In this document: piece after piece, positions 2,478-4,301 of the stretch
Layout: each line of letters begins with the position of its first letter
Position numbering within the stretch: the stretch's first letter is position 1
From: an uncultured Gammaproteobacteria bacterium
Lineage (GTDB): Bacteria; Patescibacteriota; Patescibacteriia; Magasanikbacterales; UBA922
Assembly: GCA_964597575.1 (NCBI GenBank)
Contig: CAZQXB010000001.1
Location: 660,511 to 702,594 of the forward strand
Direction of reading: 5' to 3'
Length of the DNA stretch: 42,084 bases
Program-made: the position numbers and the translations under genes
Notes under the pieces: model-generated
Seen by the model: the letters and a program-made list of their open reading frames with translations, nothing else
Databases searched by the model: none
Told to the model about the DNA's origin: nothing

Positions 2478-2654
2478 TCAGTCAAAATCCTGCGGATTTT
2501 TCCCGAAATACATTCGAACTTCGTCCAATACACACCGCCAAAATTGAAAATCCGAATCGGAAGCCGAAATGGGGTCGCGCCGCAGGCGCGACACAAACAC
2601 ATTCCCGCCAAAAATTCCTGAATCCAAAAGGTTTTTCCACGCTCCGCGTGGCTC
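2478..2654 (-). other. Silent alternative 3' end (C-terminal cassette) of the serine recombinase
   Basis: Minus-strand frame EPRGAWKNLLDSGIFGGNVFVSRLRRDPISASDSDFQFWR-CVLDEVRMYFGKNPQDFD-stop. The first 40 codons are identical to LSR codons 461-500; there is no credible start of its own. Confidence 0.75.
2535..2654. repeat. Left copy of a 120-bp perfect inverted repeat
   Basis: Reverse complement matches 4056-4175 base for base; identity stops abruptly at both ends. Confidence 0.97.
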
Positions 2655-2675: not shown

Positions 2676-4301
2676 ATGAATAATCAAACCAAAAAGTTTT
2701 TCATATACACTCGCAAGTCTACGGACGACAAAGACAGACAGGTTCGTAGTATCGCTGATCAGCTTTCAGAGTTAAAGGAGTTAGCGAGAAAAGAGCAGTT
2801 AGATGTTGTTGATGTCTTTGTCGAAAAGCAGACCGCCAAAATACCAGGCCGTCCGGTGTTTGGTGAAATGTTGGAACGAATGGAGCGTGGCGAAGCGACT
2901 GGTATTTTGGCGTGGCATCCCGATAGACTTGCTCGCAACTCGGTAGATGGAGGAAAAATCATCTACCTCGTTGATACTGGCGTCATTTCAGAAATGAAAT
3001 TTCCAACTTTTTGGTTTGATCCGACACCGCAAGGCAAATTCATGCTTTCAATCGCTTTTTCGCAATCCAAGTATTATGTGGACAACCTAAGCGAGAATAT
3101 CAAGCGCGGACATCGCAACAAAGTGAAGGAAGGCATATGGCCTCAAATGTCGCCACTTGGTTATGTGAACAAAAATAAACGAATTGTGCCTGATGAGAAT
3201 ATCGCCCCTCTAATCAAGAAAACATTTGAGGCCTATGCAACTGGAAACTTCACTTTGCGGGAACTTCGCGACAAATTTAACGCACTTGGATTGAAGCGAA
3301 AAAGCGGAAAGGAACTTGCGGTGTCGAATTATCAAAAACTTTTGAAAAATCCAATTTACACAGGTTTGATGTTGTATAACGGTGAAATACACGAGGGCAA
3401 ACACGAACCGATTATCACAAAGAAACTTTTTGATTCTGTTCAGGAAGTGATGATGAGAAAATCTAAGCCGAAATCTCGCGGACTGAAACCATATCTGTAT
3501 CGCGGATTTTTCCGTTGTGGAGAATGTGGTTGCTTTATCACTACTGAAACTCAAAAAGGTCATAACTATTTACGATGTACCAAACGGAAAAATCCTTGTT
3601 CACAAAAGTATACTCGCGAAGAAATCATCACTTCCGAAATTCAAAAGGAAATCAAAAAAGTTTCTTTGCCAGACGATTGGGCTTCTTGGATGTTGGAGGA
3701 GAATAGAAAAGATATGTTGAGTGAAGCCCAATCGTCTACGCTTTTTGCAGACAACACAAAAGCCGATATTTCTCTTTTGGATTCAAAAATAGATAAGCTG
3801 ATGAACGCATATCTTGAGAGCGCACTTTCGCTAGAGGAATATCGTGATGCCAAGAACGCTCTCGTTGCCTCAAAACAGCTTCTCAAAGAGAAATTATCGG
3901 CTTTTGAGCAAAAAGCGAATAATCGGTTCGAACTTACCGAAAAGTTTTTGAAATACAATATGGAATTGGCAAACGAGGGAACAAATGAAGAAAAACTTCA
4001 TTTGTTCAAAAAAGTCGGTTCGAACTTTCAAATTAAGGATCGAACCGTACTTTTTGAGCCACGCGGAGCGTGGAAAAACCTTTTGGATTCAGGAATTTTT
4101 GGCGGGAATGTGTTTGTGTCGCGCCTGCGGCGCGACCCCATTTCGGCTTCCGATTCGGATTTTCAATTTTGGCGGAAGGAGAGGGATTCGAACCCTCGAT
4201 ACCTTTTCAGGTATGCCGCCTTTCCAAGGCGGTGCACTCGACCACTATGCGACCCTTCCATTATTTTTATCGGTCTCATTTTTCTTTCCTCTCGTATATA
4301 A
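2676..4301 (+). CDS. Large serine recombinase/integrase (resolvase + recombinase + Zn-ribbon + coiled coil)
   Basis: Catalytic YTRKST, GRPVF, DRLARN, E-helix (LSENIKRG), PLGY, HEPII, Zn ribbon FRCGECGC...YLRCTKRKNPC, coiled-coil segment. The last 41 aa are read antisense through tRNA-Ser. Confidence 0.95.
   Translation: MNNQTKKFFIYTRKSTDDKDRQVRSIADQLSELKELARKEQLDVVDVFVEKQTAKIPGRPVFGEMLERMERGEATGILAWHPDRLARNSVDGGKIIYLVDTGVISEMKFPTFWFDPTPQGKFMLSIAFSQSKYYVDNLSENIKRGHRNKVKEGIWPQMSPLGYVNKNKRIVPDENIAPLIKKTFEAYATGNFTLRELRDKFNALGLKRKSGKELAVSNYQKLLKNPIYTGLMLYNGEIHEGKHEPIITKKLFDSVQEVMMRKSKPKSRGLKPYLYRGFFRCGECGCFITTETQKGHNYLRCTKRKNPCSQKYTREEIITSEIQKEIKKVSLPDDWASWMLEENRKDMLSEAQSSTLFADNTKADISLLDSKIDKLMNAYLESALSLEEYRDAKNALVASKQLLKEKLSAFEQKANNRFELTEKFLKYNMELANEGTNEEKLHLFKKVGSNFQIKDRTVLFEPRGAWKNLLDSGIFGGNVFVSRLRRDPISASDSDFQFWRKERDSNPRYLFRYAAFPRRCTRPLCDPSIIFIGLIFLSSRI
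4056..4175. repeat. Right copy of the 120-bp perfect inverted repeat
   Basis: Encodes LSR codons 461-500 and ends in TGGCGG, the last 6 nt of the tRNA-Ser gene. Confidence 0.97.
4170..4259 (-). tRNA. tRNA-Ser(GGA)
   Basis: GGAAGGGTCGCATAGTGGTCGAGTGCACCGCCTTGGAAAGGCGGCATACCTGAAAAGGTATCGAGGGTTCGAATCCCTCTCCTTCCGCCA: 90 nt, anticodon arm CCGCC-TT-GGA-AA-GGCGG, long variable arm, GTTCGAA T-loop, encoded CCA. Confidence 0.97.

Follow-up and report, generated by a model that had tools for sequence, protein, structure and literature searches.

In a 42,084-nt stretch of DNA (the window, at its full length), the hexamer TTCGAA is found near two copies of the same short core, CCGCCA, at two different distances. 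Does this difference reflect the way in which a large serine recombinase (LSR) tells attP from attB, or does it have another origin? At the left site, TTCGAA (2513-2518) is followed by 16 nt (2519-2534) and then by CCGCCA (2535-2540). On the right, the core reads TGGCGG (4170-4175; tRNA positions 76-71) and 11 nt (4176-4186) separate it from the TTCGAA of the T-loop of a tRNA-Ser(GGA) gene (4187-4192; tRNA positions 54-59, on the other strand). This 11-nt distance is a structural constant of all tRNAs. A perfect inverted repeat of 120 nt (2535-2654 and 4056-4175) has CCGCCA at its outer end. An earlier note on this DNA had reported these coordinates and both distances, and re-reading the sequence confirmed them.

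The window contains 18 copies of TTCGAA, about as many as a shuffled sequence. The chance of finding the hexamer anywhere within a 30-nt arm is about 1e-2, and that of finding it at an offset of +5 ± 1 in a given arm is about 1e-3. The earlier note had also pointed to a GGA triplet 8 nt from the core in both arms. The triplet is indeed so positioned (TCC at 2524-2526 on the plus strand, GGA at 4184-4186), and its conservation on the left side is partial: relatives have GGA, GAA, AGA or AAA in this arm, and g12 G13 A14 in the tRNA arm. Altogether, we read the window as the tRNA-proximal end of an LSR-moved element, and we give the geometry-based reading of its att sites as a whole a probability of about 0.72.

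The recombinase gene and its C-terminal tail

The gene that starts between the two repeat arms (codons 1-500; 2676-4175, plus strand) encodes a large serine recombinase, as indicated by Pfam domains, PDB matches and, with low confidence, the secondary structure of an AF2 model. A resolvase catalytic domain (PF00239, E = 1.9e-19) covers residues 9-154, and its catalytic motif Y-T-R-K-S15-T is invariant in 28 relatives. The Recombinase (PF07508) and zinc-ribbon (PF13408, Zn_ribbon_recom) domains are also present, with a coiled-coil insert. The best PDB match is SPbeta SprA (9dxh, E = 3e-8), and the A118/LI integrase (4kis) is matched with E = 4e-5. The AF2 model was built from a shallow alignment (mean pLDDT 47) and used for secondary structure only; it places two long helices (residues 335-414, helix pLDDT about 80) between beta-hairpins 287-301 and 451-460, and a weakly predicted helix (493-512) spans the crossover.

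The inverted repeat brackets the first 460 integrase codons, and its left arm (2541-2654, minus strand) duplicates codons 461-500. At the right end of the gene, the reading frame crosses the core and runs antisense through the tRNA gene into lgt for 41 codons before reaching a stop (4176-4301, plus strand). Translated through the left repeat arm, the same frame continues as ...FQFWR-CVLDEVRMYFGKNPQDFD*, that is, with 18 codons and a stop (2478-2534, minus strand). The earlier note had suggested that these 18 residues were the C-terminus before integration, and the comparison with relatives upholds this. The 34 variants of the tail evolve as coding sequence, with conservative and synonymous changes around a maintained motif CxLxxVRxYFxxNPxD. 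Moreover, a pattern scan for genes running into such a tail matched once among genome contigs (L087) and 8 times among metagenome contigs; in L087-L094 the integrase gene continues directly into the tail, and the L089 gene encodes a contiguous protein of 516 aa ending in CLLDKVRNYFEQNPND. The 18-aa tail is thus the native integrase C-terminus, which integration in the window has exchanged for 41 junk codons.

No gene for a recombination directionality factor (RDF), on which excision by serine integrases depends, was evident, and no candidate was conserved among the cargos; in this copy of the element, the copper operon described below is the only cargo.

Three copies of CGGTTCGA (3924-3935, 4016-4027 and 4040-4047) cluster in a span of 124 nt that immediately precedes the right arm of the repeat, and adjoin just one of the two attP copies. 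This word resembles the 5' half of a T-arm. Its copies differ in reading frame and strand, two of the three form a stable hairpin (4009-4055, z = -4.2), and two exact copies of CGGTTCGAACTT are kept in 62 of 63 integrase genes. The CGGTTCGA copies may be accessory binding sites or part of an RNA or DNA structure.

Organisation of the element and its att sites

The recombinase is encoded, at 78-95% identity, in 311 related loci from Patescibacteria metagenome-assembled genomes and two complete chromosomes; a search of viral contigs for relatives returned none. The comparative reading of the site types drew on about 95 of the related loci. The layout is near-universal among the 311 loci: a conserved GC-rich stretch of about 220 nt, then an arm bearing the invariant CATTCGAAC, the core CCGC(C/A)A, a repeat arm, the recombinase gene, a second repeat arm, TGGCGG and a tRNA gene. 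The repeat arms are identical (100%) within the locus in 27 of 49 loci; arm identities are given within loci only, ungapped between-locus values for P' having been dropped because of register errors in arms longer than 120 nt.

In the window, the left end of this arrangement begins with cargo on the minus strand (1-2261), namely a partial copA (1-1914) and csoR (1918-2193) of a 5.2-kb copper operon, identified with Pfam and with sister contigs L081-L086; the cargo extends past the left end of the window. Between the cargo and the tail codons lies a non-coding end module, rich in GC hairpins (2262-2480), which we call W; the similarity of relatives starts at about 2262-2264. A promoter-like site of csoR (TTGCAA-17-TATACT, minus strand, 2235-2264) abuts the boundary between cargo and end module at 2262.

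The sequences that flank the cores separate into four types of site. To the right of the recombinase gene, the flank on the tRNA side is host-specific, and to the left of the repeat it is borne by the element; the right junction is therefore a hybrid (attR), and the left site an element-internal P-core-P'. On this reading, 4056-4200 is attR, in which the P arm (4056-4169, plus strand; the right arm of the repeat) is joined through the core to B', the acceptor 3' strand and T-arm of the tRNA gene (4176-4200; ARAGORN, whole gene 4170-4259, minus strand). Across the related loci, attR junctions diverge directly before the core CCGC, and the partner is a tRNA-Ser of any isoacceptor in all of about 65 loci, which bears out the earlier proposal of a P-B' hybrid at this junction.

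The left site (2481-2654) in turn is an intact, inverted, internal attP, with its P' arm at 2478-2534, its core at 2535-2540 (crossover inside 2535-2538, CCGC) and its P arm at 2541-2654. Its sequence equals the product that recombination of attL with attR would rebuild, i.e. the P arm of attR followed by the P' arm of attL of the sister contigs. It is kept in essentially every relative. In addition, the recombinase gene of L089 is flanked at either end by an intact P-core-P', as expected of the unintegrated form, and in three loci (L024, L033 and L041) the P' arm of the internal site is replaced by a second tRNA-Ser, so that the internal site has recombined with another attB. The earlier note had taken the left site for an intact attP, and both the identity with the rebuilt product and the exchanges with a second tRNA-Ser agree with it. 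A feature absent from that earlier reading is that this attP is a spare, inverted copy internal to the element. The P arm also holds another word that resembles the core, TTTTTGGCGGGAA (2596-2614 and 4096-4110), at a distance of about 65 nt from the true one, TTTTGGCGGAAGG.

The reciprocal site would lie outside the window. In the contigs that carry the same csoR, the copper operon sits between inverted copies of window 2262-2538/2544 with 99-100% identity, and the far copy consists of P'-CCGC followed by unrelated DNA. W and P' together thus form an inverted repeat of 277-283 nt whose partner copy is at attL, beyond the window. The inverted copy of W is 99-100% identical in L081-L086, and Logan contigs break at 2262-2269. 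In 23 loci, a second inverted P' copy precedes the internal site by 1.9-6.1 kb, among them the complete chromosomes L008 and L060, always within a perfect inverted repeat (mostly 190-270 nt). In 22 attL sites, P' is joined to unrelated host flanks, with divergence directly after CCGC. Contigs from three metagenomes follow the window as far as 2538 and beyond it carry three different sequences. On these sequence grounds, the reciprocal attL (host-CCGC-P') would be at the far end of the copper cargo, and in the source genome it should be found about 3.1-3.6 kb before the start of the window. Finally, one metagenome run provided an apparent empty site, in which the matching tRNA 3' end is directly followed by another tRNA gene. 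All four types (attP, attR, attL and empty tRNA-Ser ends) were therefore recovered, with CCGC as their common core, and the full order of the element reads host-CCGC-P'-W-cargo-W-P'-CCGC(C/A)A-P (all inverted)-integrase gene-P-core-tRNA-Ser.

An integron-like docking of cargo at the internal attP was also considered, and rejected: the cargo sits between the inverted P'+W blocks, away from the internal core.

The tRNA-Ser target

The tRNA gene next to the recombinase is a tRNA-Ser in all of the approximately 65 loci, with anticodon TGA, GGA, GCT, CGA or 'ACT'. The earlier note had proposed the T-loop as the recognition motif of attB. The T-loop is universal among tRNAs, so that it cannot by itself explain the choice of tRNA-Ser. 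The combination C71 C72 G73 C74 was absent from all 41 other tRNA genes in the related loci, and the CCGC core is the Ser-specific part of the target.

The tRNA-Ser genes to which ARAGORN assigns an 'ACT' anticodon (L024, L033, L040, L041 and L064) are usually divergent from tRNA-Ser(GCT), and they also serve as integration targets.

Geometry of the att arms

Information profiles of the arms are strongly unequal: P' is conserved over at least 32 nt and P over about 15 nt, whereas B shows no conservation. B' is conserved at CGG, G13-A14 and TTCGAAC (61 attR sites). Numbered from a GC crossover, P' reads C1 G2 G3 T G T G T A T T G12 G13 A14 C G A A G T20 T C G A A25, and B' reads C1 G2 G3 A G a G G G a G g12 G13 A14 T15 T C G A A20. 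The two agree without any shift at the inner positions 1-3, 5, 7 and 12-14. The GGA triplet is therefore a member of this unshifted inner set (positions 12-14).

For the outer positions, the best match of the P' profile to the B' profile is obtained at a shift of +5 (0.45, against at most 0.33 for other shifts). TTCGAA occupies positions 20-25 of P' and 15-20 of B' if the crossover is at GC, or 18-23 and 13-18, respectively, if it is at CC. The spacing of 16 nt was kept in all of the 81 P' arms retrieved by motif pattern (59 internal attP and 22 attL; 34 sequence variants), and the difference between 16 and 11 nt holds in all 81 P' and all 61 B' arms. Two diverged P' variants, L014 (TTCGCA) and L092 (TTCGAG), retain the TTCG/TCGA block at the 16-nt spacing.

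In the P and B arms, no conserved distal motif was found: position 16 of P takes all four bases and, at best, T-x-x-GAA occurs at 20-25 in some subfamilies. The att sites of this family are therefore one-armed, with P' and B' the sole arms to show the geometry. The 5-bp offset between attP and attB that the earlier note had put forward is thus family-wide and in the best register for P' and B', and it does not extend to P and B. Likewise, the alignment of att arms of relatives, which the note had proposed as a check, showed the 16-nt spacing throughout the 81 arms and also a third type of arm, joinable to P, without TTCGAA (L018, L019 and L055; GTTARGTACCC).

In the LI integrase, the zinc-ribbon motif is at positions 16-24 in attP and 11-19 in attB, with no such difference between the two sites in the binding of the recombinase domain (Rutherford et al. 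2013, PMC3783163). We infer, by analogy with LI, that the zinc ribbon would contact TTCGAA in the present family.

P' could also be a degenerate tRNA 3' end, as in the islands of tyrosine integrases, in which case its TTCGAA would be a former T-loop shifted by a 5-nt insertion. P' does contain both the T-loop hexamer and CCGCCA, and it has the inner positions G5, G7 and G12-A14 in common with the tRNA arm. But the complementarity of T-stem and acceptor is gone, P' is an open and conserved coding tail, and it shows no decay, being the best-conserved non-catalytic part of the element. Furthermore, it is the P arm, and not P', that supplies the restored end of the tRNA. A tRNA relic is therefore very unlikely.

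DNA-level and coding constraints on the P' arm

TTCGAA in P' also encodes a conserved Val-Arg, and its presence might thus be due to the protein: the tail would need Val-Arg (GTT CGA), and the match with the T-loop and the offset would have no role at the DNA level. That P' is translated as the native tail, with its conserved motif CxLxxVRxYFxxNPxD, is in line with such a coincidence. So are the diverged tails of L014 (RVVDDVRTYW) and L092 (CILKIARTEF), in which Arg is retained while the hexamer becomes TTCGCA or CTCGAA, and the third arm type (P'3), which is without the motif. The synonymous sites of the tail tell otherwise. In the integrase genes (n = 63), 13 of 67 4-fold sites are invariant, which sets a background of 19%; against this background, both 4-fold sites inside TTCGAA (GTT and CGA) are invariant in all P' arms found. 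Among the 34 tail variants, synonymous change affects only 2 of the nine codons nearest the core (positions 4-30), and only as TTG/TTA, whereas all 7 distal codons vary synonymously (TTC/TTT, GGG/GGA/GGC, CAA/CAG, AAT/AAC, CCG/CCA/CCT and GAT/GAC).

This near-absence of synonymous variation out to about position 30, followed by variation in every codon beyond, looks like a footprint on DNA with the length of an LSR attP half-site, and it argues against a purely coding explanation of TTCGAA. P', moreover, fits the tRNA arm best when shifted by exactly +5, an offset at which the hexamer would fall by chance with a probability of only about 1e-3. We thus regard the coding coincidence as unlikely, and retain recognition of TTCGAA at the DNA level as the preferred reading.

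Crossover position and orientation

Large serine recombinases exchange strands with a 2-bp stagger, at a central dinucleotide by which polarity is set. The divergence points limit the crossover to CCGC (tRNA positions 71-74), in which this dinucleotide may be GC, CG or CC. That C74 does not vary in attL was considered as proof of a GC crossover and discarded, as C74 is near-universal in tRNA genes of the Candidate Phyla Radiation (CPR), being C in 40 of 41 other such genes.

The earlier note had suggested that a self-complementary GC would allow integration in either orientation. This was not borne out. Of the 42 testable loci with integrated copies, all have the gene running into the tRNA and none has it in the native orientation. 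An opposite-orientation junction of tRNA with P' was found neither in the related loci nor in the genome contigs scanned, where the only comparable structure was a head-to-head P'/P' relic (L096). According to the rule established for phiC31 and Bxb1, a palindromic crossover dinucleotide would permit both orientations. The uniform polarity therefore rather favours a crossover at the non-palindromic CC of tRNA positions 71-72, or else strong selection against the opposite products.

The same counts bear on another explanation, that of a resident invertible switch, in which the recombinase would flip its own gene between two C-terminal tails at hix/gix-like sites and TTCGAA would be incidental. 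The crossover cores are indeed located at the outer ends of a perfect 120-nt repeat, so that inversion would regenerate both sites, and the other orientation is present in a few contigs. Assemblies also break at the repeat, with contigs of 1401-1448 nt and unitigs of exactly 120 and 1461 nt; Logan contigs cannot span a 120-nt repeat, however, and are therefore uninformative on inversion. On the other side, the orientation towards the tRNA is fixed (42 of 42), with a single match in the native orientation in all genome contigs, and the enzyme is an LSR rather than a small invertase. In addition, the right partner arm is a different tRNA-Ser in each host and attL junctions exist, which points to integration and not to a resident switch. 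We consider inversion a highly improbable account of this locus, and integration at tRNA-Ser is the reading followed below.

Proposed mechanism and comparison with known systems

Under the preferred reading, attP is P-CCGC-P', with the integrase gene running across it, and attB is the 3' end of a tRNA-Ser gene, in which B' is the acceptor and T-arm, CCGC corresponds to tRNA positions 71-74 and B is the trailer. Integrase dimers would bind attP and attB mainly via P' and the tRNA arm. These arms are in register over their inner 14 bp (CGGnGnG....GGA), where the recombinase domain would be seated, and the zinc ribbon would be placed on TTCGAA, 5 bp further out on P' than on the tRNA. Strand exchange within CCGC would then create attR (4056-4200) and, at the far end of the cargo, attL (host-CCGC-P'). 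The tRNA 3' end would be restored by the P arm, and the native 18-aa tail of the integrase exchanged for antisense-tRNA codons. A second, complete and inverted attP (2481-2654) is retained inside the element.

A bolder version of this mechanism would reduce each site to a single arm, attB being CCGC plus the T-loop and attP a mimic of the T-loop in the last codons of the enzyme. The element would then be a self-limiting and re-armable device: loss of the tail would quiet the enzyme, the spare attP would keep both tail and site, and the three invariant CGGTTCGA copies (3924, 4016 and 4040) would, as accessory binding sites, mark the attP to be used, which would account for the constant reading of the gene into the tRNA. 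We hold this extended version to be doubtful and rather improbable.

The closest parallel to the preferred reading is the A118/LI model, in which the zinc ribbon is half a helical turn further out on attP and the trajectories of the coiled coils then permit only attP x attB synapsis (PMC3783163). The present family has the same set of domains, an inner (recombinase domain) region in register in both sites, and a distal motif 5 bp further out in attP (18-25 vs 13-20, depending on the dinucleotide). In contrast with LI, where both half-sites have the motif and are thereby quasi-symmetric, it shows the motif in P' and B' only, targets the end of a tRNA gene, has its attP inside the integrase frame and is only remotely similar in protein sequence. 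Phage mv4 and other tyrosine integrases also target the 3' end of tRNA-Ser and restore the tRNA end with element DNA, but use a tyrosine rather than a serine enzyme and a different attP architecture (bioRxiv 10.1101/2023.11.06.565760). SPbeta SprA, phiC31 and Bxb1 likewise convert attP and attB, with a short common core, into hybrid attL and attR; these systems have one attP and a separate directionality factor, whereas here a second inverted attP is present in every copy.

In the yeast 2-micron circle, the Flp/FRT site is located inside long inverted repeats. The excised form of the present element would be similar in having two unique segments, the 5' part of the integrase gene and the cargo, split by inverted site-bearing blocks of about 400 bp. 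Unlike the 2-micron circle, it depends on a serine recombinase, is not a replicon, and has one site consumed by chromosomal integration; flipping is also rare or absent in the integrated state.

In the literature searched, we found no description of this CPR integrase family or of a serine integrase mimicking a T-loop. The family is thus apparently undescribed, one-armed and tRNA-mimicking, while its underlying LSR geometry is known; it departs from known systems in having one-armed sites, a tRNA as target, an attP within the integrase frame and a spare attP in inverted orientation. If the geometry holds, this serine integrase recognises a tRNA gene by means of an attP that contains a copy of the T-loop, in the register expected from the LI structural model. 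Nature would then have confirmed that model independently, in a CPR family both distant and very abundant, and the att sites would illustrate a strong, one-armed asymmetry. Being compact (about 45-60 bp) and predictable, they would be useful as new integrase/att pairs for engineering. The finding also offers a handle on the spread of small cargo islands in Patescibacteria, with copper resistance in this copy and restriction or defence genes elsewhere.

Variant arrangements in related loci

Several related loci depart from the common layout. The third arm type mentioned above follows the core as GCGG-GC.....GTTARGTACCC (L018:2370, L019:7495-7530, L055:700-802). Read in frame, it gives the integrase another tail, A[TR][RL]V[KR]YPR, and a conserved block, GGTCGGGGTCTAAAACA...AATGAGACAAATGAGACAC, lies about 90 nt beyond it. 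This third arm suggests that end modules are exchangeable.

In L096 (6100-6170), two P' arms are arranged head to head (TTCGAACTTTGTCCAAT-TTTGAAC-GTGTGTATTGGACAAAGTTCGAA) and the core is deleted, which may be the relic of a loss of cargo between inverted end modules. In L014 (7495-7620) and L060 (7495-7560), the real tRNA-Ser gene is 4-5.5 kb beyond the integrase unit, which itself adjoins, in L014, a P'-like arm that has diverged and, in L060, the degenerate 3' half of a tRNA. These two loci look like tandem arrays of modules with tRNA-like joints.

A copper element 99% identical to that of the window is inserted at a non-tRNA site in L081 (7900-8140; TGGCGG-AGTATCGCGGATGATG...), next to genes for a LexA-like protein, a methyltransferase and ThsB-TIR. 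This site has only A4 G5 and G12-T15 in common with the tRNA arm, and is either a pseudo-attB or a site on another mobile element. Finally, a lone P-core-P' with about 30 nt of the integrase 3' end occurs in an ordinary chromosomal context in L095 (2820-3020; also in L090 and L093). The block of the L095 type adjoins glycogen-synthase-like genes and is an orphan attP remnant.
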